From the IMG/VR virus record IMGVR_UViG_3300022690_002279, positions 1 through 26,750 of that record: a DNA stretch of 26,750 bases, one strand, 5' to 3'. This document shows positions 6,923 to 26,542 of the stretch, one piece after another. The DNA comes from a virus (lineage: Duplodnaviria; Caudoviricetes). The notes beneath the pieces were generated by a model. It was not told where the DNA came from. It saw only the letters and a program-made list of their open reading frames with translations, and did no database searches. The number at the start of each line of letters is the position of its first letter. Within the stretch, counting starts at the first letter, position 1. A program made the translations under genes and the position numbers.

Positions 6923-7120
6923 ATGGCTAAAAAGAAATATATTGATACCAAAAAGTTTTATGAGAGTAAGACTTTGTGGTTTAACGCCCTGATGACTGTG
7001 TTGTTGTTGGCGGAGCTTTTGAGGGAGTTGCCTTGGGTGAGTCCTGAGATGTTGACTGTGCTTATCGGAGCTGGGAATGTCGTTTTGAGAGTGTGGTTCA
7101 CTAAGAAAGCAGTGGAATAA
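6923..7120 (+). CDS. Holin-like two-TM protein
   Basis: GAGGTGA SD; YESKTLWFN...GNVVLR pattern with two hydrophobic helices; last gene of the late module. Confidence 0.65.
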   Translation: MAKKKYIDTKKFYESKTLWFNALMTVLLLAELLRELPWVSPEMLTVLIGAGNVVLRVWFTKKAVE

Positions 7121-7205
7121 TCATTTAAAGTAATTTATTTTATTATTTATTTATAAATCATTAGTAGTTTATTATAAATCATTAGTAGTTTATTTTTCTA
7201 TAATA
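7121..7205. other. Extremely AT-rich tract (candidate duplex unwinding element; T-runs may also terminate the late operon)
   Basis: Almost only A/T; adjacent to ORB-like boxes. Confidence 0.6.
7151..7192. repeat. Perfect tandem repeat, 2 x 21 bp (TTATAAATCATTAGTAGTTTA)
   Basis: Read directly at 7151-7171 and 7172-7192. Confidence 0.95.
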
Positions 7206-7258
7206 GTTTCATGTGGAAACAAGTGGAACTTTTAAGACCCCCTTGTTTCCTGTGGAAC
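7206..7258 (-). promoter_or_regulatory. Archaeal origin recognition box (ORB)-like elements
   Basis: Minus strand 7258-7238 GTTCCACAGGAAACAAGGGGG (TTCCA-N3-GAAAC plus G-string); 7220-7206 GTTTCCACATGAAAC; partial GTTCCACTTG at 7229-7220. Confidence 0.65.
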
Positions 7259-7302
7259 TCTAGAAAAAGATTTTGTATGTTGTTTCTTTCTTTTTCTTTC
7301 TT

Positions 7303-7314
7303 AACTTTTATATA
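7303..7314 (+). promoter_or_regulatory. Candidate archaeal promoter (AACT-TTTATATA)
   Basis: Canonical TTTATATA at 7307-7314 upstream of a hairpin-rich region with no credible ORF. Confidence 0.4.
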
Positions 7315-7366
7315 CTTCCCCTTCCCAATCTACTTCAAACCAACTTTTCACCGTTAAAAATTTTTA

Positions 7367-7618
7367 GACACCCATCACATAGGTGGGTGTTTGTTTCTAT
7401 CGGAAGTGAAGGGGTCTCCCCTGGTAGGGTTCGTTGGTTTTCCTTTCACTTCCGCGTCATCTCTGGTACTAGCCCAATCGTGCTTGTCACCGAGGCTCCG
7501 CTTTGTCCAGCGTGGCAGCGCTACCCGTATTGGCTCTGCTCGTTTCTCGTCATTACTTATATTTAGTTGCGGTATGGCCATGCCCCTTTGGGGTTCCTCG
7601 TCACGTTGTGGGTTTTTT
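7367..7618 (+). ncRNA. Candidate structured non-coding RNA
   Basis: Stems 7367-7376/7382-7391, 7401-7414/7441-7454, 7471-7478/7529-7535 and 7480-7490/7512-7521; G-U pairs favour the + strand; T-run at 7613-7618. Confidence 0.45.
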
Positions 7619-7809
7619 ATTGAGTTAGTCATCATATATTTGCGATAGGTTTATAACCAAGAATGAGATTCTTCTTCTTGGTTATTTCTACGATATTTCC
7701 TCGTAGATCTACCTCCTTTGCTGGGGGTAATTCCCCGGCATTTATATTTCTTTCTTATCACTGGGTATATGTTTTATATGTTTTTCTGGGTTGTATATGT
7801 TTTATTATA

Positions 7810-7846
7810 GAAAGGTTTAAATAGATTCATTACTATTACTATTACT
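7810..7846 (+). promoter_or_regulatory. Early promoter: BRE (GAAAGG) + TATA (TTTAAATA), followed by 3 x ATTACT
   Basis: TATA at 7816-7823, 31 nt before a leaderless ATG at 7847; ATTACT x3 at 7829-7846. Confidence 0.75.
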
Positions 7847-12507: not shown

Positions 12508-12560
12508 CATGCGTACAACCAATATGAACGAATGATATGGGTGAAAATGATAAAGCTAAA

Positions 12561-13148
12561 ATGAAAGTATTGAATCTATATGCGGGGATAGGAGGCAACC
12601 GTAAGCTTTGGCCTAAATGGTGCGAAGTGACGGCTGTTGAAAATGATCCAGTTATTGCTCAAGTCTATCAAGACAATTTCCCAGATGACAAAGTTATAAT
12701 CGGTGATGCTCATCAATACTTGTTAGATCACTATAAAGAATTTGACTTCATCTGGAGCAGTCCACCTTGCCAAAGCCACAGCAGTTTTAGACACAACATT
12801 TGCGTAAGGTATAGGGGAACTAAGCCTGTATATCCAGATATGAAACTTTATCAAGAGATATTATTCCTTAAACACCATTTTGAGGGTAAATGGGTAGTGG
12901 AGAATGTTAAACCATATTATAAATCTTTAATTGAAGGGAAGCTTATTCAACGCCACATGTTTTGGAGTAACTTCGAAATTGAAGATGTAGTTGATTTTAG
13001 TGGTGATAAGATAAGGACAGCTCAAATACCGCAACTTCAAGAACTTCATGGTTTTGACTTATCAAAATATAAAATAAAGAACAAAAGACAAGTACTAAGA
13101 AATTGTGTGTTCCCACCGTTAGGATTATATGTGTTTGAATGTGCTTAA
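12561..13148 (+). CDS. Compact C5 DNA cytosine methyltransferase
   Basis: Motif I LYAGIGG, motif IV SPPCQ, motif VI ENV, motif X-like LRNCV; very short variable region. Confidence 0.85.
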   Translation: MKVLNLYAGIGGNRKLWPKWCEVTAVENDPVIAQVYQDNFPDDKVIIGDAHQYLLDHYKEFDFIWSSPPCQSHSSFRHNICVRYRGTKPVYPDMKLYQEILFLKHHFEGKWVVENVKPYYKSLIEGKLIQRHMFWSNFEIEDVVDFSGDKIRTAQIPQLQELHGFDLSKYKIKNKRQVLRNCVFPPLGLYVFECA

Positions 13149-14446: not shown

Positions 14447-14782
14447 ATGAGAATCATAGACCAAGCCAAAACGTACATCACAGAATACGCAGTCTACTAC
14501 ACTGATCGCATCGCGGAAAAGAACAAAGAATACAAAGCACTCACCACCGCAAACCCAGGCTTTCCCCACGGCATATCGGTAGATGACTGCAAGAGGGCAG
14601 TAGAACTAGACCGAGAAATAACAGGGCTCGAAGGCAGGAGGATAGGAGCAAGTCACTTTCTCGAATTCATAATCAACGCAGATGAAGCCATGATCGAAAG
14701 AGGCAGACAAGACATGCACATCCCTGCTCCTTATGCAGATCCTTTCCAACCAGGAGACGGCGGTGGGGGGAATGCAGCTTGA
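14447..14782 (+). CDS. Hypothetical protein
   Basis: ATG 14447 just after the RHH gene stop; its stop overlaps the next TTG start. Confidence 0.6.
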   Translation: MRIIDQAKTYITEYAVYYTDRIAEKNKEYKALTTANPGFPHGISVDDCKRAVELDREITGLEGRRIGASHFLEFIINADEAMIERGRQDMHIPAPYADPFQPGDGGGGNAA

Positions 14783-15438
14783 AATGGGTGCACGGTCTAG
14801 CCTTAGCCGCTTTCCTTACGGCATGCGCTTCTCCACAATCCAAACCTACAGGGGTGAGCAGGATGGATGTATCGTTTAAAGTAAGCAAGTTTGATGACGA
14901 AGCACTTCTAGAAGTACTAACAGAACTCAACAAGGTACCTAGGTGGTATCGGAAAGTCGTTGATGATTACGAAGGCAAAATGGTCTTGGCCGAAGGTAGC
15001 CTAGTAGATTACGTGGAGTTTGCCGATAACGCTGGCGTATTCCACCCTACCGCAGGCCTGTGGGATAACATCCCTGGGGCTTACGACAAGACTACCAAGC
15101 AGGCGTTCATCATCGTAGGACGACAAGGAGGTAGTGGAAGTTTACCGCTTCACGAATACGGCCACCTACTAGATGATGCTCTTGGCACTCCTAGCAGAGA
15201 TATGGATTTCAGGGCTATCTTTTCGGTATGTAGAATAAGGGAGCGTTACGGCCGTCCAGTCATGAGGGACCATGCCAGACTGGACATGGATGCGGAAGAG
15301 TTCTGGGCTGATAGCTTTACGGATTACCACAGAGGTGTGGAAAGCCGGGCGGAGTTACTGGATTATTTTCCTGAAAGCTTCCACTACTTTAGCAGGTTAG
15401 AGAAGCAGGTGCGGAGCAGTGAAGGTGTGGGAAGATGA
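14779..15438 (+). CDS. Lipoprotein zincin metallopeptidase (ATLF/lethal-factor-like)
   Basis: Signal peptide with lipobox LTAC; HEYGH plus downstream EEFWADSF. Confidence 0.75.
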   Translation: MKWVHGLALAAFLTACASPQSKPTGVSRMDVSFKVSKFDDEALLEVLTELNKVPRWYRKVVDDYEGKMVLAEGSLVDYVEFADNAGVFHPTAGLWDNIPGAYDKTTKQAFIIVGRQGGSGSLPLHEYGHLLDDALGTPSRDMDFRAIFSVCRIRERYGRPVMRDHARLDMDAEEFWADSFTDYHRGVESRAELLDYFPESFHYFSRLEKQVRSSEGVGR

Positions 15439-17030: not shown

Positions 17031-17453
17031 ATGGCAAACGAACAAAACCTAGCACCAAAATTCCAACCGGGAAAACGAGCCCGAGAGATGGGTAGAAAAG
17101 GCGGAAAAGTGAAAAGTATCAAAAAAACAAAAGCAAGCAGACTAAGCGGAAAGATAAGAAGCCTCAAAAGAAAAGGAGAACTAGGAGACCAAGAAGCAAA
17201 AGAACTAGCAGAAACCCTAAGCGACCCATCACTAAGCTCCCTAGAACTAAAAATCTACCTCAAAAAGATCCAGAAAATAGTGGACGACTGGGACCAACCA
17301 TTCCTGATGCTTAAACTAGTAGATCACATGATGAAATGGCACAAACTTCACCATGGAGAAAGAACAGATGCAAACATGAGCCAAGTACAAGCAATCCAAA
17401 TCATTATAAACGATGAAAGGAATAAGTACCCAGTTATAGATCCTGAATCATGA
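17031..17453 (+). CDS. terS: Terminase small subunit
   Basis: MANEQNL...AREMGRKGGK N-terminus; ATGA overlap with terL. Confidence 0.7.
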   Translation: MANEQNLAPKFQPGKRAREMGRKGGKVKSIKKTKASRLSGKIRSLKRKGELGDQEAKELAETLSDPSLSSLELKIYLKKIQKIVDDWDQPFLMLKLVDHMMKWHKLHHGERTDANMSQVQAIQIIINDERNKYPVIDPES

Positions 17454-18754
17454 TGATTGATCCGCCAAAACGCATAATTTTCAATGCAGCGAACGAGCAA
17501 CAAGCCAGATTCCTCTACAGCCGAAAAAGGTACCTGATGCTTTCTGGTGCCGTGGCTGCAGGAAAAAGCCTCATTGGGTGCTATAAAGGATTTCTTCTTA
17601 ACTACAATTATCCGGGTAATAGGGGCTTGATCTGTAGAAAAGAGGGGGTTAGTCTTAAGGGGAGCACGGTCAAGACCTTGCTTGAGCAGGTCATCCCTCC
17701 AGAGATCATTGTTTCTTATAACCAGATGGTGGGGGAGCTTTGGCATAAGACGAGGATTCCTGGTAAGAATAGCTGCATCGTTTTCTCAGGTCTTGATAAG
17801 AAAATGGGGCAGAGCTACCCTACCAAGATTGGGAGTACGGAGTTTGGTTGGATATTCGTTGATGAGGGTGTGGAGATTGATGAGGGGGATTGGATGATGC
17901 TCTCGACACGGCTTAGATACAAGCTTTTGGGCTATACCGATTCGCAGAACAGTCTTATTCCTAGGCAGATGTTTACGGCTACTAACCCGGACACGCCACA
18001 TCATTGGTTGTATAAGTTCTTTTTTGGAAAGAAACAAGAAGGCAGAGAGGTTTTCCTAACCACTCCTTATGATAATCCTTACCTGCCTGCGGAATATCTT
18101 AAAGCTTTGGAGGAGAACCTTACCGGAATCGCAAGAGAAAGACTACTCTTAGGTAAGTGGGTCATAGCAGAAGGCCTGGTCTACAGCAGTTTCGACCCGA
18201 AGAAGCACGTATTCAAGGATGGGTTCCTGGATTACAAGGATTATAAAGAACTCATAATAGGAGCGGATGCTAACTATCCCATCCCTAGAGCGGCGGTTCT
18301 TATAGGTATCAAAGGGGATGGTTCAATAGACGTTTTGGAAGAGTTCTACAGGGCCGGAAGCCACGTTGAGGAACTAGGGGAATGGGCGGGAAACATTTAT
18401 AAAGAGAAAGATGTTATCCCTGTGATATATCATGATCCGTCAGACCCAGAAGCTATAAACAAACTAAGACAAGTAGAGGGTGTTGTTTGTAAGAAGGCAG
18501 ATAATACCGTGCTTGGTGGTATTAGTGAAGTATCAAGACATTTTGATAGCGATAAATTATTGATACGGATAGATTCCCGATGTGTTAACTTGATCAAGGA
18601 GCTTCACTCTTATAGGTGGGAGCAGGGCAAGGTTGGTGGTAAGCCTAAGAAGGTTGATGATCATTGCGTTGATGGTTTGAGGTATGCGCTTTATAGTCAT
18701 AAGAAGAATATGGATTTTTCCTTACTGGAAGATAAAGAAGGAGTGTTTTTTTGA
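17450..18754 (+). CDS. terL: Terminase large subunit (PBSX/SPP1-like)
   Basis: Walker A GAVAAGKS, Walker B IFVDEG, ATNP coupling motif, nuclease IGAD, YHDPS and DDHCVDGLRY. Confidence 0.96.
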   Translation: MMIDPPKRIIFNAANEQQARFLYSRKRYLMLSGAVAAGKSLIGCYKGFLLNYNYPGNRGLICRKEGVSLKGSTVKTLLEQVIPPEIIVSYNQMVGELWHKTRIPGKNSCIVFSGLDKKMGQSYPTKIGSTEFGWIFVDEGVEIDEGDWMMLSTRLRYKLLGYTDSQNSLIPRQMFTATNPDTPHHWLYKFFFGKKQEGREVFLTTPYDNPYLPAEYLKALEENLTGIARERLLLGKWVIAEGLVYSSFDPKKHVFKDGFLDYKDYKELIIGADANYPIPRAAVLIGIKGDGSIDVLEEFYRAGSHVEELGEWAGNIYKEKDVIPVIYHDPSDPEAINKLRQVEGVVCKKADNTVLGGISEVSRHFDSDKLLIRIDSRCVNLIKELHSYRWEQGKVGGKPKKVDDHCVDGLRYALYSHKKNMDFSLLEDKEGVFF

Positions 18755-18771
18755 ATAAGAGGTGATTTAGA

Positions 18772-18999
18772 ATGGGAAAAGAAAATGGGGGCTTTCTGCT
18801 CTTTGTAAGTGTTATTACTTTGTTTAGTTTAGTGGTAAGTGCGGTTATGGGTTTTGCATTGAGTTTCTTTATTTTGAAAGAATTAAATGCTAGTAGTGGC
18901 TTGTGGACTCTTTTCTGGATTTATATAGTTGTTGCGGGTTTGAGTATTTTTACGAATGGAGTAATTGAAGTAGTCAGGGGCTGGTTGAAAGAAGATTAA
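18772..18999 (+). CDS. Two-TM membrane protein
   Basis: GAGGTGA SD; two long hydrophobic helices. Confidence 0.7.
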   Translation: MGKENGGFLLFVSVITLFSLVVSAVMGFALSFFILKELNASSGLWTLFWIYIVVAGLSIFTNGVIEVVRGWLKED

Positions 19000-19182
19000 A
19001 GGGGTGTTTTTTTAAATGTCATATAAAGAAAGATTAAGGGAATTCAAATCCATGATAGGATGGTTCCATGAAGAAATGAAAAGCAACTCGGTTACGGATT
19101 TAGTAGTCTGGGTGGATTGCAAATTGGAAGTGGAACACGCAAAGGAAAAAGAAATGAGAACAAAGAGTGGGTGAGTCCTGAA

Positions 19183-19464
19183 ATGAAAGAAATAAAAATT
19201 GGTAAAGTAGATATTAGCAATCTCAGAAAACTAGCACAGTATCTGGATTTTATAATTATCTTGGAGGCTAATCTTCTTCAGCCAGAATTGTTAATTATAA
19301 GCGTTGATTTATTCGAGGCTCACTTAGCAAACATTAATGATTTTAACAGGATACAAGTTCAAAGAGATGAAAGCAAAGGGAATTTAATCATAGAGGGAGG
19401 ATATAAGTGCAAAGTTAAATGGCCAGAGGAATGTAAAGAATGCGGTGTTGTAAAACACTTTTAA
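19183..19464 (+). CDS. Hypothetical protein
   Basis: GGTGA at 19170-19174 before ATG 19183; C-terminal CKEC. Confidence 0.55.
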   Translation: MKEIKIGKVDISNLRKLAQYLDFIIILEANLLQPELLIISVDLFEAHLANINDFNRIQVQRDESKGNLIIEGGYKCKVKWPEECKECGVVKHF

Positions 19465-19853
19465 AGAGGGGGTTTTTTTGAAATGGATAAAATAACTAAG
19501 AAATATGTTTTGGAAGCTTCGTTTTGGATTATTTTATTATGTACATTTTTAACTGTATTCATAGCTAAGATTCTTTCTTGGGGGTTCAAATGTTAAAGAT
19601 TATGTCTAAGAGGAAGTTAGAAAAGATGATGTTAATGATAGGGGCAACAGCCTTGTTTGTTTGGCTTTGGGCACTGTTATCAATATTTATAATGTGGTTA
19701 ATGGGGGCACGCTGGTAAAATGAAGCCAGCGCACATCGTCAGAAGTAAGATAAGAGTCCTGCAATTGAAGTATAACGAACTGCAACGAGCAGGGATCATT
19801 GCGAAAGCCGAGTTGGTCAAGGCAGAAATGGACGCTCTTGGTTGGGTGCTACA

Positions 19854-20228
19854 ATGAAAGATAAAATAGAAGCTTTAATTGAATATACCAGGGGTAAATA
19901 TTGTGAGTGTATTGAGGGGGGTAATATAGAACTTTGTGATTGTTGCAATAGGCTAAAAACATTCATAAAATGGGTTGGTAAAGGTGATTGGGACATCCAT
20001 GAATTTGTTGATTTAGTTAAAATGGTTCCTAGACTTAAAAGATTAGTGGACGATCAAAATGAGATGGGTTTGTTGTTAGAGAAGATAAGGAAACTACACT
20101 GCGTCTGCCATGAAGATAAAAAGAATGTTCATATACATCAAACTTTTCAAGGGCAATTTTATTTATTTCAAGGAGATATATGTTTTAATTGCGAGAAGCT
20201 AGACGAACTCTTAGAGGAAGAAACATGA
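19854..20228 (+). CDS. Cys-rich hypothetical protein
   Basis: CEC...CDCC and CVC...CFNC; ATGA overlaps. Confidence 0.6.
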   Translation: MKDKIEALIEYTRGKYCECIEGGNIELCDCCNRLKTFIKWVGKGDWDIHEFVDLVKMVPRLKRLVDDQNEMGLLLEKIRKLHCVCHEDKKNVHIHQTFQGQFYLFQGDICFNCEKLDELLEEET

Positions 20229-20410
20229 ACAAATGCAAAGGCTTTAATGGATGGTTATTTGGTCACGTTTTTGACTATTTTAATCAAAGAGTTAGAGATT
20301 ACGAATCCCTCACCGAAATAGATGATACAATGAGGGGTCGTTTTGGAATAACAAAAACAAGAGTAGATAAAGAATTTTATCCAATTTGCAAAAGGTGTGG
20401 GGTAGAATGA
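20225..20410 (+). CDS. Small Cys/His protein (C...FGH...CKRCG)
   Basis: Pattern typical of small prophage proteins (DUF1660-like, from memory). Confidence 0.55.
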   Translation: MNKCKGFNGWLFGHVFDYFNQRVRDYESLTEIDDTMRGRFGITKTRVDKEFYPICKRCGVE

Positions 20411-20814
20411 TTATAAAATCTATATTCCTATCTCTAATAACAGCCGGTTTTTGTTTATTGATAATGATAATCCTATACAAAATAGAAATTTTACATGATG
20501 ATGTTAAAGAAATAAAAAAACTCTTGAAGAGGAACAAATGAATCAGGCGCAACACGTACTCCTAAACATCCTAATGTTCATTACGGGGTTCATAGTGGGG
20601 AAGTTGCTTACAGCTTATTTATTGATCAACAAAAAGGCTAGGAGGAAAGAATGAAAAAACACAAATTCGAATTGGAAATACCCAACATGTTGAACTCTGC
20701 AATAGTGATTACGTGGTTAGCTATAGCAATATTAAGCACTTTTTCATGGGATTCTAGAAGCGTGATCATATGGCTGGCTTTTGTATCCATGTGTTCACTA
20801 ATATGGGGGAATAA

Positions 20815-21249
20815 ATGATGAAAACAAGAAACATGACATTCATGGAAGCAGTCCAAGCAATGAGGCAAGACAAGAAAGTAAGAAGAGCTATTTGGGCACC
20901 TTCAGGTCATTTCTTAAAAGTCTTTGATGAAATAAGAACAGAAAATAATGACCCTGTCAACATGTTTCTTTCTACAATAATAGATGCTATCGATTGGGAG
21001 ATCGTGGAAGAGAAGAAAACTTTGAGTGATAAGATAGTACATCAAGATATCAGAAAATTTGAAGAGATGTATGAAAATGGAAAATTGATTTATGAAAATC
21101 GGACAATAACTCAATATGTCATTTTTAGTGATAATGTCAAAGAAGCATTGAAAAAAGTAATTGTAAATCTAGGATTGTATGATATGGTTAAAGCAAAAGA
21201 TATAATTAAACATATCAAAGAGATCTTCGGGGAGGAATTAACAAAATGA
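20815..21249 (+). CDS. Tad2/DUF2829-like domain fused to a C-terminal helical domain
   Basis: MTFMEAVQAMRQDKKVRRAIW...AIDWEIVE matches the terminal signatures of the family. Confidence 0.65.
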   Translation: MMKTRNMTFMEAVQAMRQDKKVRRAIWAPSGHFLKVFDEIRTENNDPVNMFLSTIIDAIDWEIVEEKKTLSDKIVHQDIRKFEEMYENGKLIYENRTITQYVIFSDNVKEALKKVIVNLGLYDMVKAKDIIKHIKEIFGEELTK

Positions 21250-21500
21250 AAGGATTTATAGAAATAAAAGCACTAGACAAAATAGACTTAAAAACGGAGT
21301 TCGATGTCAGCATCAAAGCAGAAGCCATAACTTACGTTTCCGAAAACTGGAGAGATGTGCCTAAAAAAGAAGGAGAAATGGGTGGAGGAATTAAAACGTT
21401 CAAGTTTAGAGAAATAGGACTGCCAGGAAGCGCATTCTTCCTCACCAAGCTCGGCAAAAAGTTCATAGAAGAAAAAGTAGAAGAAGCATTAGATCAATAA
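21246..21500 (+). CDS. Hypothetical protein
   Basis: GGAGG SD; ATGA overlap. Confidence 0.6.
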   Translation: MKGFIEIKALDKIDLKTEFDVSIKAEAITYVSENWRDVPKKEGEMGGGIKTFKFREIGLPGSAFFLTKLGKKFIEEKVEEALDQ

Positions 21501-21509
21501 GGGGCATAT

Positions 21510-21725
21510 ATGAAAAAAGCAAAACCAACCCACACCATATGTTCATCAGAGAAAGAAGTTCAAGTAATAGAAAAAACAAGACGGATCAAAATTTCGGCAA
21601 ATGATGTAGATATAGAAATAAGTTCAATGCATGATAAAGATACTCTTTATCATATTTATAATTTAATTAAGATGGCACATAATGATTTCAAATCTAAGAA
21701 ACAAAAACAAGGTTATATAAGATAA
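21510..21725 (+). CDS. Hypothetical protein
   Basis: ORF with AGGGG SD-like sequence. Confidence 0.55.
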   Translation: MKKAKPTHTICSSEKEVQVIEKTRRIKISANDVDIEISSMHDKDTLYHIYNLIKMAHNDFKSKKQKQGYIR

Positions 21726-21732
21726 GTAAAGT

Positions 21733-21747
21733 AACTGATATAAATAA
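21733..21747 (+). promoter_or_regulatory. Conserved late-type promoter AACTGATATAAATAA (copy 1)
   Basis: Identical 15-mer at 24571 and 25921; contains TATAAATA. Confidence 0.8.
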
Positions 21748-21768
21748 CTAAACCAGACAAACACTCAT

Positions 21769-21841
21769 GGCCGTGGTACGCAGAACCATTATTCCCTTTA
21801 AATAATTGTTTCTGGGGGGGGATCAAACCCCCCTACGGTCA
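21769..21841 (+). ncRNA. tRNA-like RNA lacking a D-arm
   Basis: Acceptor GGCCGTG/TACGGTC plus A; T-arm GGGGG-ATCAAAC-CCCCC; long central hairpin 21781-21814; starts 30 nt after the TATA start. Confidence 0.6.
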
Positions 21842-22053
21842 ACCCACTCAGCCATTAATAAAGAGGTGAAATTATGAAAGTAATATTAAAAAAAGAATAT
21901 GAAATAAATACTCAAAAACCAATAGAAGAAATACAAGAACAAGTAACAAATAAATTAAAAGAATTAGAAAAAACATTTTTAATAGAATCTTATGGAGTTC
22001 ATCAAAGAGGAGTATTAACAATAATTGGTTACCAGAAAAATTAAACCCCCCCC

Positions 22054-22188
22054 ATGACAGGATATACATGTATGGAATGTGGATTGATGGTCACAGAAGT
22101 CCCAGAACCTCAAGAAACAAGATGCCCATACAACCCCTACAGGCACGTATTCCTAGAAACTAATATAAATAAAAAACCCCACACCTGA
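22054..22188 (+). CDS. Small CxxC protein (44 aa)
   Basis: YTCMECG...CP...H; no SD seen. Confidence 0.4.
   Translation: MTGYTCMECGLMVTEVPEPQETRCPYNPYRHVFLETNINKKPHT
22158..22172 (+). promoter_or_regulatory. Late-type promoter AACTAATATAAATAA (copy 2), portal gene
   Basis: One mismatch to the 15-mer; TATA starts 30 nt before ATG 22194; no SD (leaderless). Confidence 0.8.
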
Positions 22189-22193
22189 CTAAG

Positions 22194-24497
22194 ATGGCTA
22201 AATGGAAATTTCTAGAAAAAGCTGACAAGTTCTTAAGGCCAACGCTTTACGAAACAAAAAAGCAACTCAAGATAGCCATGGATGGCCTACTCAGACCTTT
22301 TGGCGGCTCGAGCAGGCATGGTAGTGGCTATTCAGGAACCGTTTTCGCTTACCCTATCTTCCCTTTCCATCACCACATGCTTTACGATATCGCTTACAAT
22401 TCCGACGCCCTTTCCGCAGTGCATAACGCTTTGAGAAGAGAGATTTTCAGAAACGGTTTCGAGTTCCTGGAAGCGAAAAACACTGACGAAGTAGGAAGCG
22501 AAGAAGAAACCCAAACCACCAACGAAGTAGACAGGAAAGAAGCCCTGGAATTCTTAGAAAACATTAACGAGAACGGCCAAAGCATCATAGATGTCCTCAT
22601 GGAAATAGAAGATGACTTATCCATTAGGGATGATGGTTTCATGCTGTTCATCAACCAATACAGTTTCGACTTCGCAGGAGACATCTTATCTGAAGAAACC
22701 AAGCTCACCCAGGTCCTACGAGCCGATCCTAGATACATGGGAAAGATCATGAACAAGTATGACAGGCCAGGATACGATGACCAAAACATCCCACTCTTCG
22801 TTTGCCCTATCCACCGAAGCGACCTCCTAGAAGGCAAAGATAGATGCGATAAACACGATGAGGGTAGAGGGCTTCAAGCCCTAAAAGCCTACTTCTTCAC
22901 AGACTACGGAGATAAAAGGATATTCTATGGCAAGAAAGAAATAGTGCACAGAAGCAAATACCGGCCAAGCAAGCGTTTCGGTTACAGTCCTGTCTTGACG
23001 GTTTGGCAAAAAGTGAGAACCCTCTTCAGTATGGATACTTACATGATGCAACTCTACGCTAGCCAAAGACCTCCAAAAGCCGGACTCTTCTTCAAAACGG
23101 ATAACCAAGCAGGACTAAAAAAGACTTGGGATGAAGCTAAACAGAACGCTAGACTCCACCCGCACTTGCCTGTCATCATGAGCATTCCTAACACCACTAA
23201 TGGAAAGAGCTTTGTAGAGTTCATAGACTTCATGAAGCCACTGGCAGAGATGCAATACACAGAAGCTAGGAACGAGATGCGCCAAGTCATAGGAAGCGTC
23301 TATGGTGTTATGCCTATATTCCAGGGGGATATGAGTCAAGGTGGCGGATTGAACAATGAAGGGCTTGAATTAACCGTTACTAATAGGGCTGTCGAATATG
23401 GCCAGGGTATTCATAATAAGTATTATCTTGCTAGATTAGTGGAAGCTATGGGCGCTAAGGGAATGCAGATACTCCTAAAACCTAACGAGGAGCAAGACGA
23501 GATGGCCAAGTTGCAAAGAGAGAATCAAAGCTTGATAAACGGCCAATTAGCTATGAGTCTTGGTCTCGAAGCGGAATTCGATGATGATTCTAAAGAAGTA
23601 ATTATAAAAGGAGGAGAGCTTTCGAGTTCATCTGGGTTGGAGGGGTTCGAAGATGGCCTTGGCGGATCAAGCGACTTCTTCACAGACTCAACTATTCCTG
23701 GTTCTGGCGAACCTCCCCAACCCAATCTCAACCTCCAAAAAGCAGAGATGGAATCCGTTCTTAAGCAGGCTAGGAAGAGGCCGCCTTTCACCAAATTGGC
23801 ATCCACCCTGCGCAAAAAGATTGATGATGCTCTGAAAGCGCTAGGCCGGAAGCCTACAGAGGATGACTTGCAAAAAGTGATTAGGGAGGTCAATCTCAAT
23901 TTGCAGAAACAGATGCATGATTCTACCAACAGCCTTTTCAAGAAGAGTTATGAGAAGGAAGCGGATAAAGTATTCAAGGAACTCAAAGTCGAGGGAGCTT
24001 TTGGCGTTCGTGATGAGAACGCCCTGGTGGCTTTGCAGAACCAGTCTGTGTTGAGCGATGCTTTCTCAAATATATCTTCCGATTTGGTAGTGAAGGTTCA
24101 GGACGTGATTACTGATGCTTTCCGTGACCCTGCCGGTTTGAGCGTTGGAGCTATCACTGAGCGTATTAAGAACATTTCGGACGTGGCGGATTTCCAAGCT
24201 GAGCGCATCGCAAGGACGGAGATTGGTAAGGTTTCCTCGGCTGCTAGGAAGGTATCTTATCAGAAACAAGAGGGTTTTGATACGTTCAAGTTTCGTTGGA
24301 TTGGCCCTAACGATTTTAGAACTACTGATACTTCTAAGCGTATCAAATCAAGAACGAAAAGTGGTGTTAGCTATGCGGAACTTGTTAAGATAGTTGAGGA
24401 AGAAAGTGCTAAAGATTTTCCTGATTGGACGGTTAATAAGGATGCGCCTCAGAGTCATTGGAATAGTCGTCACATATTTTTGAAATTGTCTTCCTAG
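22194..24497 (+). CDS. Portal protein fused to a MuF/SPP1 gp7-like head morphogenesis domain
   Basis: Portal-like FGYSPV and IGSVYGVMPIF; C-terminal AERIARTE, WIGPNDFRT and HWNSR; first large gene after terL. Confidence 0.85.
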   Translation: MAKWKFLEKADKFLRPTLYETKKQLKIAMDGLLRPFGGSSRHGSGYSGTVFAYPIFPFHHHMLYDIAYNSDALSAVHNALRREIFRNGFEFLEAKNTDEVGSEEETQTTNEVDRKEALEFLENINENGQSIIDVLMEIEDDLSIRDDGFMLFINQYSFDFAGDILSEETKLTQVLRADPRYMGKIMNKYDRPGYDDQNIPLFVCPIHRSDLLEGKDRCDKHDEGRGLQALKAYFFTDYGDKRIFYGKKEIVHRSKYRPSKRFGYSPVLTVWQKVRTLFSMDTYMMQLYASQRPPKAGLFFKTDNQAGLKKTWDEAKQNARLHPHLPVIMSIPNTTNGKSFVEFIDFMKPLAEMQYTEARNEMRQVIGSVYGVMPIFQGDMSQGGGLNNEGLELTVTNRAVEYGQGIHNKYYLARLVEAMGAKGMQILLKPNEEQDEMAKLQRENQSLINGQLAMSLGLEAEFDDDSKEVIIKGGELSSSSGLEGFEDGLGGSSDFFTDSTIPGSGEPPQPNLNLQKAEMESVLKQARKRPPFTKLASTLRKKIDDALKALGRKPTEDDLQKVIREVNLNLQKQMHDSTNSLFKKSYEKEADKVFKELKVEGAFGVRDENALVALQNQSVLSDAFSNISSDLVVKVQDVITDAFRDPAGLSVGAITERIKNISDVADFQAERIARTEIGKVSSAARKVSYQKQEGFDTFKFRWIGPNDFRTTDTSKRIKSRTKSGVSYAELVKIVEEESAKDFPDWTVNKDAPQSHWNSRHIFLKLSS

Positions 24498-24605: not shown

Positions 24606-25019
24606 ATGGCTGAAGAAAACAAGAAAGCAGTAGACACGATTCTTAAAGCAGTAGATAAAGAAATGGACAAGATAGCCGACAGAGTCTTTGAACTCAGCCA
24701 GACAAACCTTGTGCGTGATGAAAAGATAGATACTGCCACCCTTCTAAAAACCGCCAACGTCAATAGGGACTTTCTCGATAAAGAAGTAGTCTACCCAGCC
24801 AGCTACGCCTCTTTTGTAGAGTTTGGAAGAAGTGCTGGAACCATGCCACCAATAGCCCCACTACTGAAATGGGTCAAAAGAAAGCTAGGAATAGCCGATG
24901 AAAAACAAGCAAGAAGCATAGCCTTCGCCATAGCACTCTCGATCAAACGCAGAGGCATAGCTGCCTCACCATACTTGCGGCCAGCCATAGAGCAAACGGC
25001 AGCGGAGATGAAATTATGA
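24606..25019 (+). CDS. HK97 gp10-like virion morphogenesis protein
   Basis: IDTATL, YASFVEFG and PYLRPA motifs. Confidence 0.8.
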   Translation: MAEENKKAVDTILKAVDKEMDKIADRVFELSQTNLVRDEKIDTATLLKTANVNRDFLDKEVVYPASYASFVEFGRSAGTMPPIAPLLKWVKRKLGIADEKQARSIAFAIALSIKRRGIAASPYLRPAIEQTAAEMKL

Positions 25020-26542
25020 AAGAAATCGTTTTTACAGGTCAAGAAATACTTTCCGTATCCAAACAAGATAAAGAAGACAATCTTAAGACTTCTGAGATTA
25101 TAAAGATATTTGAGAACAGCACAGACTTGGAAAAGATAAAAGAAGCTGTTCGGAAGGCAGAAGAAAGAATGGTCGTTACCTGGGCTAGTGTTGAGATGAA
25201 AGATAATGCTGGAGAATTGATCCCTATGGCCGATTTGATAAAGCAACAGAAGATATTACTAGAAAGAAATGGCCCCATAACGGATACCCATACTAACAAG
25301 GTTCATGGTCAAACACTTGCTTTTAAAGTAATGGAGAACCAGCATAGCAAAAGTTTAGGAGTTCTGCACTTGGATAAGATGTTTGCTCATGATGTAAGAG
25401 ATGATAAATTGTGGGGCGAGATCAAGAGCGGTGAAAGGGCTGGGAGTAGTGTGGGGGGTTTCAATACATCTGTTTCTTTCGGAAGAGATAAAGTTACAGG
25501 GGAAAGTGTGAAAGTTTTAGAAGGGTTTCACCATAGGGAAACAGCAAGCGTGAGAAATCCTTGCAATCCTTTATCTCTTAATGAAGCTTTTTCAGTAGTT
25601 GCGAAAAGTTACACTTCCAAAGGGCAAGATGTTGAGAAGCCTAAAATGGTAGATGATTGCGTTGATGCTTTAATGGAAGATCCTGACTTCAAACCTGAAC
25701 CAGGCAGAACCAAGGAAGAAGCAGCGCATGCTGTGTGTAATGCTCGTTTTGCTGAGAAAAACAAGGGAGAACACAAAGAAGAAAACACAGAAAACGATTC
25801 TTTTGCAGGATTTGACACGTTAGGAGATTGCGTTGCGGCAAACGTAGGAGTGGAAGCAGATCCTGTGGGTTATTGCATGTCTATGAGGAATAAGGCAGTG
25901 CACAAAACCGAAAATCGGGAAACTGATATAAATAAGCTTAACCTTCAAGAAAATATAAAAAAGACTGAAGGTGATCCCATGGACTCAAATGAATTAAAAA
26001 AATCCCTTTCTGAAATGAAAGAAATCCTTAAAAGTAATTCTGCAGAAATAGCCAAACTGAAAAAGACGGTTGAAGAGAGACGAGAAGAAGAGGAAGAAAA
26101 GCGTGAAGATGCTCCAAAACCTCCAAAAGAAGAAGAAGAGGGAAAAGTACGAGACAAGAAGAAAGTCATCCAAGCAGGCGAAGAAATATTGCCAACCGAA
26201 GAAGAGGAAGAAAAGAAGAAAGAAGAAGCGGCTAGCGACATCGCAGGTGAAGAACCTGCAAGAGACCAACCCGAATCGTCTATCGAAGAACAAAGCAACC
26301 AAGAAAACACTTTCAAAGAAATGAAGAAAGAACTTGCAGACATCAAAAAGATGGTTGCCCTCAAAGCTATAACCCCTCACCCAGCAGCGGTAGCTTCTGA
26401 CGTGAACAAAGCAGACGTGGCAAAAGCTACAGATCTCAGAAACCTCGGTTTAGACCTCGCAACAGGAAAAAAGACGATGACCTGGAACGATGTCCACAAA
26501 GCGGAAGAGGATTACTTTAAACTAAGTGGGAGGAGGATATAA
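25016..26542 (+). CDS. Prohead maturation protease (XkdF/HK97-like) with C-terminal scaffold region
   Basis: WASVEMKD..GE, HTNKVHG, WGEIKSGERAGSSVGG, ETASVRNPCNP; charged coiled-coil C-terminus; precedes the capsid gene. Confidence 0.85.
   Translation: MKEIVFTGQEILSVSKQDKEDNLKTSEIIKIFENSTDLEKIKEAVRKAEERMVVTWASVEMKDNAGELIPMADLIKQQKILLERNGPITDTHTNKVHGQTLAFKVMENQHSKSLGVLHLDKMFAHDVRDDKLWGEIKSGERAGSSVGGFNTSVSFGRDKVTGESVKVLEGFHHRETASVRNPCNPLSLNEAFSVVAKSYTSKGQDVEKPKMVDDCVDALMEDPDFKPEPGRTKEEAAHAVCNARFAEKNKGEHKEENTENDSFAGFDTLGDCVAANVGVEADPVGYCMSMRNKAVHKTENRETDINKLNLQENIKKTEGDPMDSNELKKSLSEMKEILKSNSAEIAKLKKTVEERREEEEEKREDAPKPPKEEEEGKVRDKKKVIQAGEEILPTEEEEEKKKEEAASDIAGEEPARDQPESSIEEQSNQENTFKEMKKELADIKKMVALKAITPHPAAVASDVNKADVAKATDLRNLGLDLATGKKTMTWNDVHKAEEDYFKLSGRRI
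25921..25935 (+). promoter_or_regulatory. Late-type promoter AACTGATATAAATAA (copy 4), inside the protease CDS
   Basis: Exact 15-mer, upstream of internal GGTGA SD (25970-25974) and in-frame ATG 25979. Confidence 0.8.
25979..26542 (+). CDS. Nested in-frame scaffold protein (187 aa)
   Basis: Own promoter, SD and ATG in frame with the protease (codon 322); E/K-rich coiled coil. Confidence 0.75.
   Translation: MDSNELKKSLSEMKEILKSNSAEIAKLKKTVEERREEEEEKREDAPKPPKEEEEGKVRDKKKVIQAGEEILPTEEEEEKKKEEAASDIAGEEPARDQPESSIEEQSNQENTFKEMKKELADIKKMVALKAITPHPAAVASDVNKADVAKATDLRNLGLDLATGKKTMTWNDVHKAEEDYFKLSGRRI

Follow-up and report, generated by a model that had tools for sequence, protein, structure and literature searches.

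Introduction

The tRNA-like domain of tmRNA and mascRNA each combine an acceptor stem with a T arm in the absence of a normal D stem or anticodon arm, and the tmRNA domain is distinguished by the G3-U70 pair of alanine identity and by an attached tag-coding domain. Among the described RNAs, those closest to the locus studied here are the t-elements, found upstream of the 5S rRNA of Haloferax volcanii (PMC4326828, PMC4946936) and in plant mitochondria (PMC1920247). As these sources present them, they have a non-canonical fold built on an acceptor and T-arm motif, are CCA-less and lie 5' of another RNA, and they are cut by both RNase Z and RNase P, in Haloferax (PMC4326828) as well as in plant mitochondria (PMC1920247). 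Regarding the features that such enzymes recognize, one account has RNase P RNA, RNase Z and CCA enzymes using the elbow of the tRNA (PMC4810234), while in another a 12-bp top half is described as enough for some tRNA enzymes (PMC4033280). Related departures from the canonical tRNA include the (8/4) phage tRNAs and the G-1 tRNA species that take no part in translation, which offer a precedent for charged, non-decoding tRNA-like RNAs; both are described as bacterial and as retaining the cloverleaf, D and anticodon arms included (PMC5389517). The Y RNA YrlA of bacteria and phages is portrayed as a further tRNA mimic, one member of which is cut by RNase P and gains CCA; its D and T arms are both kept but arranged differently, and it is paired with Ro60 (PMC4201824). 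In viruses, 10,006 candidate RNAs have been reported, a set that could include related motifs (PMC10690425), and the function of the tRNA-like genes of archaeal viruses is called unknown in the account available to us (PMC13532342). In the literature searched, we found neither half-tRNA genes nor t-elements in archaeal viruses, and t-elements only for Haloferax rRNA and plant mitochondria.

Here we analyse a 73-nt element at positions 21769-21841 (+) of a viral sequence from marine sediment (IMG/VR record IMGVR_UViG_3300022690_002279, positions 1 to 26,750), the whole 26,750-nt stretch being referred to below as the window. The sequence features described below make the element a candidate for a tRNA-derived, non-decoding RNA gene, present in a single copy.

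Results

A viral window with a probable DPANN host

The window comes from the genome of a tailed virus and has genes for a tape measure protein, a terminase (17450-18754) and a portal protein (22194-24497). Its best terminase matches are the haloviruses HVTV-1 and HCTV (33%) and its genes carry archaeal-type Shine-Dalgarno sequences, and judged by these features the window is that of an archaeal tailed virus. The nearest viruses share only 46-56% portal identity and are mostly partial sequences. In cellular genome bins, the two closest portal relatives are L092 (52%, Pacearchaeota, genome G005) and L093 (46%, genome G001), and these two genomes share a phylum, in that a genome search draws the same set for both. 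Since they do, the host is probably a DPANN archaeon, an assignment made through binned contigs at 46-52% portal identity. The label attached to L093 and G001 is Methanosarcinales, yet it draws the same phylum set as the Pacearchaeota relative L092. Among five genomes of the candidate phylum, with the host itself only inferred, RNase Z was found in 5/5, the RNase P RNA in 4/5 and a CCA enzyme in 5/5 (two of them over the cut-off). HARP-type PIN_5 was found in 0/5 candidate host genomes.

In most close relatives the terminase gene borders the portal gene or lies close to it. In the window they are separated by 3.4 kb (18755-22193) of mostly orphan small ORFs, and the element lies near the end of this block. 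The block includes a Tad2-like (Thoeris anti-defence) ORF at 20815-21249 (+; Pfam E 1.6e-6). Downstream of the element follow an orphan 56-aa ORF (21874-22044, +), which has no homologue but itself and only Pfam matches under the cut-off, and a 44-aa ORF with a CxxC motif (22054-22188, +), whose Zn ribbon match is not significant (E 0.38). The former is probably, and the latter possibly, co-transcribed with the element.

Several other regions of the window deserve mention in their own right. A 219-aa ORF at 14779-15438 (+) matches the Pfam domain ATLF (PF07737, E 2.7e-12), named after anthrax lethal factor, in what is probably an archaeal virus, and an ORF at 12537-13148 (+) has a match to a C5 cytosine methyltransferase that is confined to the N-terminal portion of the enzyme. 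The region 7120-7830 is non-coding, with an AT-rich direct repeat at about 7140-7195 and stable hairpins at about 7350-7470 and 7670-7740, and is a possible origin or control region.

The element folds as a tRNA top half with a rebuilt middle

An initial annotation of the sequence had described a D-armless tRNA look-alike of 73 nt, and both sequence and folding bear this out, including its stems, linker, hairpin, A73 and the lack of an encoded CCA. The 5' strand of the acceptor stem occupies 21769-21775 (reaching 21776 in the 8-bp registers) and is followed by a 5-nt linker (21776-21780) and by an irregular hairpin (21781-21814; about 12 bp, with a loop of 7 nt at 21794-21800), which stands in place of the D and anticodon arms. 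The T arm, with its G5/C5 stem, covers 21817-21833, and the acceptor 3' strand with the discriminator completes the element at 21834-21841. The 73 nt have a minimum free energy of -29 kcal/mol (z -2.59), which 2 of 200 shuffled sequences equal. Pair probabilities are 0.88-1.0 for the seven acceptor pairs, two of which are G-U, 0.68 for the T stem and 0.56-0.99 for the middle hairpin, and acceptor and T arm together form a stack of 12-13 bp. Taken alone, the middle hairpin is borderline, its energy being matched by 126 of 2000 shuffles and its pair count by 49 of 2000. The element has a GC content of 51%, as against 20-38% in its flanks.

Mapped onto tRNA numbering, the T loop falls exactly at positions 54-60, and the canonical tRNA length is kept, with 41 nt between acceptor and T stem. 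In comparison with the canonical tRNA (RF00005), the element thus shares the 7-bp acceptor on a 5-bp T stem, if in an ambiguous register, as well as C72, the discriminator and the invariants G53, U55, C56, a purine at 57 (A57), A58 and C61. It differs in having A instead of U54, in lacking the D arm with G18 and G19, and in a hairpin loop that has C at 33 and U at 37 where a tRNA would have U33 and a purine, on a 5-bp stem. The ambiguity arises from runs of G8 and C6, which permit three registers of the stack: 7/5 with a 7-nt T loop (-23.8 kcal/mol), 8/4 with a 7-nt T loop (-23.1 kcal/mol), in which U8-A9 is restored, and 8/5 with a 6-nt T loop, which has the lowest energy of the three (-26.6 kcal/mol). 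A His-like reading with G-1:C73 was not preferred because it would need a 6-nt T loop, and a tRNA on the minus strand, which the nearly palindromic T arm might suggest, was rejected since no matching acceptor strand exists at the required place.

At its default threshold ARAGORN called no tRNA or tmRNA gene at the element or elsewhere in the window, the outcome that had been predicted for tRNAscan-SE or ARAGORN, and Rfam found no family in the window, with five weak matches near the element that fall far under their cut-offs. ARAGORN in mitochondrial mode with a low threshold was uninformative, as it called hundreds of sites. These empty searches, the absence of G18/G19 and the unusual loop all agree with the earlier claim that the element resembles a tRNA without being a decoding one. 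A strict acceptor and T-arm descriptor, composed after the element had been seen, has the element as its single match in the window. Of 300 block-shuffled windows, 10 contain a match when the spacing is left free and 1 when it has to be that of a tRNA.

The contigs of the source run cover the element at 103-145x with no alternative letters, and a contig that breaks off at the G8 run would be consistent with variation in the length of that run. A second strain is seen at 22208-22999 in run X1 (38.5x), where it differs at 97 of 792 positions of the portal gene. We considered a strain breakpoint at the element and rejected it, as the point where the second strain departs falls within the portal gene.

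Comparison with described tRNA-like RNAs

The tRNA-like domain of tmRNA and mascRNA had been put forward as the comparison for this RNA, and we find the t-element to be the closer known kind. The element has C3-G70 and no tag reading frame, and it yields neither a tmRNA call nor an Rfam match. It possesses the sequence features of a t-element, and we class it as putatively working like one, with its cleavage predicted. It differs from the t-elements in being viral and in having its own TATA promoter at +1, the full length of a tRNA, a rebuilt middle hairpin and A54. With the (8/4) phage tRNAs and the G-1 species the element could share an 8/4 acceptor branch, which lies within 1 kcal/mol of the 7/5 register, but it is without the D and anticodon arms that these are described as keeping. 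YrlA likewise differs in its D arm, and we found no member of the Ro60 family among the 31 + 7 window proteins scanned, the window being a partial genome, nor any Y RNA match in Rfam.

Promoter geometry and ends

The initial annotation had placed the element at the expected start of a perfect late-promoter copy. The element does have its own promoter, an archaeal TATA motif at 21733-21747 (+; TATA box 21739-21746), near-identical copies of which make four in the window (21733, 22158 before the portal gene, 24571 and 25921), whereas the term late is a suggestion drawn from the copies at the portal and head genes. The distance from the TATA box is 30 nt to 21769, 30 nt to the ATG of the portal gene and 29 nt to the ATG at 24606. 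The fourth copy lies inside a 508-aa ORF (25016-26542), where within 25921-25981 (+) it precedes a Shine-Dalgarno sequence and, in frame, an ATG at 25979; the match of most relatives to this ORF is confined to its first 200-245 residues, and the promoter may belong to a nested gene of protease/scaffold type.

Our reference set comprised 100 starts of tRNA genes in four genomes, all from the phylum to which the two closest genome-borne relatives belong. A TATA-type box is present 22-40 nt upstream of 61 of these starts, with a mode of 30 nt (13/61), and the distance of 30 nt seen for the element equals this mode. The two bases before the element, AT at 21767-21768 (+), could form a 2-nt leader if transcription starts there, and together with G21769 they read ATG, the start codon of a 12-codon ORF (21767-21805, +). 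AT is the commonest dinucleotide at -2/-1 among the reference genes (33/100), and in 27/100 an ATG spans -2 to +1; hence the ATG at 21767 needs no peptide as its explanation. Within the fold, U21768 pairs with A21841 with probability 0.81 and the G of the same ATG is paired with probability 1.0.

A T-rich trailer follows 56 of the 100 reference tRNA genes, and none follows the element: its trailer (21842-21873, +) has no T-run terminator and contains the Shine-Dalgarno sequence of the next gene (21863-21869), and the next run of five T occurs at 21976, within the 56-aa ORF. The 3' end of any discrete RNA from the element would therefore have to come from cutting. Scans for sigma-70 promoters and for terminators stayed at chance level.

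Different best tRNA matches for the two ends

We compared the element with a set of 155 tRNA entries, some of them counted twice and 22 of them taken from loci that had been picked with a pattern containing the same acceptor sequence. The isotypes of intron-bearing genes were read from the sequence, as their ARAGORN labels were wrong. For the 3' 25 nt the top score is 39, against a mean of 18.3 (sd 6.3), and is reached by the elongator tRNA-Met of G001 (CAT, with an intron; C10:18448-18569), with 23 identities and two 1-nt gaps. The runner-up score is 33, in a tie that includes the elongator tRNA-Met of G006. The G001 gene has A54 and G60, and is the only one among the 155 entries with A54. 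The 5' 18 nt (21770-21787) score best with DPANN tRNA-Ser (27; mean 10.6, sd 6.0), a lead that the choice of loci partly predetermines in the selected genomes, though it also appears in G006 and G461, and that in G001 becomes a tie with Leu. For the middle 29 nt there is no likeness to any tRNA: when compared with 51 tRNAs, 294 of 300 shuffles reach at least the same score. From this comparison, the ancestor would be a GCCG-led Met or Ser tRNA, with the 5' end favouring Ser and the 3' end Met.

The element thus resembles the G001 elongator tRNA-Met at its 3' end and class II tRNA-Ser at its 5' end, shares the promoter geometry of tRNA genes of the phylum, and differs from them in being without D, anticodon and variable arms and without a T-rich trailer. 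Its register is shifted by one base: compared with the G001 tRNA-Met it has one base fewer at the T loop and one additional pair at the top of the acceptor. The two gaps appear to offset each other and to restore the 12-bp stack, the 7-nt loop and C72-A73, when set against this non-orthologous reference tRNA. With the same reservation about the reference gene, the offsetting changes hint at selection on a length measured by processing enzymes.

We rejected A54 as a host marker, the control pattern being present in only 4 of 121 genomes. The A54 pattern itself was found in 1 of 301 genomes of the phylum and 1 of 101 of the order, G001 in both cases, and not in the other genome of its family (n=1); intron-less tRNAs with this acceptor and A54 occur in 0 of the 301.

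Searches for homologues

No relative of the element was recovered in any of our searches. Exact or degenerate patterns had 0 matches in viral contigs. A further pattern scan gave 8 matches, all due to chance, two of which are bacterial-type terminators with the same hairpin, and another gave 43 matches, of which the 41 inspected include many reverse complements of ordinary tRNA T arms and none that is element-like in its fold. With blastn, phages and plasmids returned short chance matches only. After the element itself, the next match had an E value of 21 with nhmmer (192 loci and the window) and of 4.8 with a single-sequence covariance model (74 sources), and the best values of the covariance model in 5 + 5 genomes or records were 0.17 and 0.87. 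A relaxed descriptor run on 52 sources (671,879 nt) produced 11 raw matches, of which 6 were kept after folding: the element, three ordinary tRNA genes and two non-tRNA folds. The proteins neighbouring the element led to no related loci. As no search yielded a homologue to compare for covariation, any selection on the element is putative.

Discussion

Our best reading, to which we give about an even chance, is that the element is a tRNA-derived, non-decoding gene that works like a t-element, in that trimming by the RNase Z and RNase P of the host would free both a stable mimic and the downstream mRNA. Host RNA polymerase would start 0-2 nt before G21769, probably late in infection, and RNase P would either take off the leader or cut read-through RNA from the upstream cluster of small ORFs. 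RNase Z would then cut after A21841 and CCA would be added without a template, leaving a stable non-decoding RNA of 73-76 nt and, as a second product, an mRNA with an end of its own that carries the 56-aa and 44-aa ORFs. A processing signal, a decoy and an enzyme ligand had all been among the functions initially proposed, and of these a substrate of RNase Z and RNase P appears to fit best, given that no CCA is encoded, that there is no T-run terminator, that the downstream gene has its own Shine-Dalgarno sequence, and that the enzymes are present in candidate hosts. The contrast between a 3' end with 23/25 identities to tRNA-Met and a middle unlike any tRNA suggests that the top half was kept and the bottom half replaced, and we propose that the top half was kept because it is the part that RNase P, RNase Z and CCA-type enzymes measure. 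Several features speak against this reading. Without G18/G19 the element would have no normal elbow, the register predicted to be lowest in energy has a 6-nt T loop, the ancestry appears split between a Ser-like 5' end and a Met-like 3' end, and there is a single copy. Furthermore, with a promoter at +1 a processing signal for the downstream gene seems needless, which favours the RNA itself as the product.

The last point leads to a different view of the same first steps, in which the released RNA is what selection acts on, an abundant late decoy that binds tRNA-handling proteins of the host, which might be a synthetase, a defence nuclease that cleaves tRNAs, or the machinery of CCA addition and RNase Z. 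The RNA lies at +1 of a promoter identical with the one before the head genes, which would suit this role, as would the exact tRNA length with its 41-nt spacing and the location in a variable terminase-portal block that also houses the Tad2-like ORF. Yet the non-canonical hairpin loop would give an anticodon nuclease little to recognize, no candidate partner protein was found, and such a decoy was not found described in the literature searched, so that we regard it as rather unlikely. A bolder version is similarly doubtful: a DPANN virus may have rebuilt a captured host tRNA into a late RNA gene, shifting the register while keeping the 12-bp ruler and replacing the decoding half, with the matured, CCA-tailed RNA acting in trans as a decoy for host proteins that handle tRNAs or cleave them in defence; its gene would then be one of a class of half-tRNA genes of archaeal viruses not described so far. 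One could also speculate that the element is a viral tRNA gene in decay, formerly an elongator Met or Ser tRNA, which has kept its promoter and now serves only as the 5' leader of the downstream ORFs. Both ends are clearly tRNA-derived, the two G-U pairs, A54, the ambiguous register and the borderline middle hairpin could all be marks of decay, and related viruses carry ordinary tRNA genes, while tRNA pseudogenes are described as occurring in archaeal viruses (PMC13532342). Uniform loss, however, would not spare the 3' matches and all 12 pairs of the stack while erasing the middle, the length and T-loop position are exactly canonical, and the GC-rich element stands out from its AT-rich flanks, all of which leads us to think decay rather unlikely, on a par with the decoy. 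The tRNA genes of the relatives are a Met gene with a 65-nt intron (L033, 2622-2759), a Trp gene (L121, 3074-3145) and a gene with an oddly enlarged anticodon region (L102, 670-750).

Two readings in which the sequence would be translated, or take part in translation, find less room. That the transcript is a leaderless mRNA for the 12-aa peptide, with an incidental or regulatory fold, had been raised as an alternative, and its ATG lies 28 nt past the TATA box, near the spacing found at the portal gene (30) and the gene at 24606 (29), whose starts are leaderless, with GC following the ATG at all three starts. This alternative is weakened by the frequency of an ATG at the same position in host-phylum tRNA genes and by the pairing of its U and G at the end of the strongest helix; since a peptide would leave the T arm and the acceptor 3' strand, both beyond the ORF, without an explanation, we consider it very unlikely and judge the ORF incidental. 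Least probable of all, in our view, is a working D-armless tRNA that reads its loop as the lysine anticodon CUU, in the manner of the D-armless tRNAs of metazoan mitochondria. The canonical length, the 7-nt hairpin loop and the 8/4 register with U8-A9 would be in its favour, and (8/4) tRNAs are described in phages (PMC5389517), but the residues at 33 and 37, the missing D arm and G18/G19 and the silence of ARAGORN at its default threshold do not fit, and D-armless tRNAs are, in the account we drew on, known from metazoan mitochondria and dependent on adapted factors (PMC4033280).

If the t-element-like reading is true, archaeal tailed viruses would reuse the tRNA maturation enzymes of their hosts to punctuate transcripts or to make tRNA mimics, and genes of this sort would escape both tRNA finders and Rfam. 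The element would then constitute a short natural substrate with which to ask if the elbow must include its D-loop half for the RNase Z, RNase P and CCA enzyme of archaea to act, and it bears on the question of why archaeal viruses carry tRNA-like genes.
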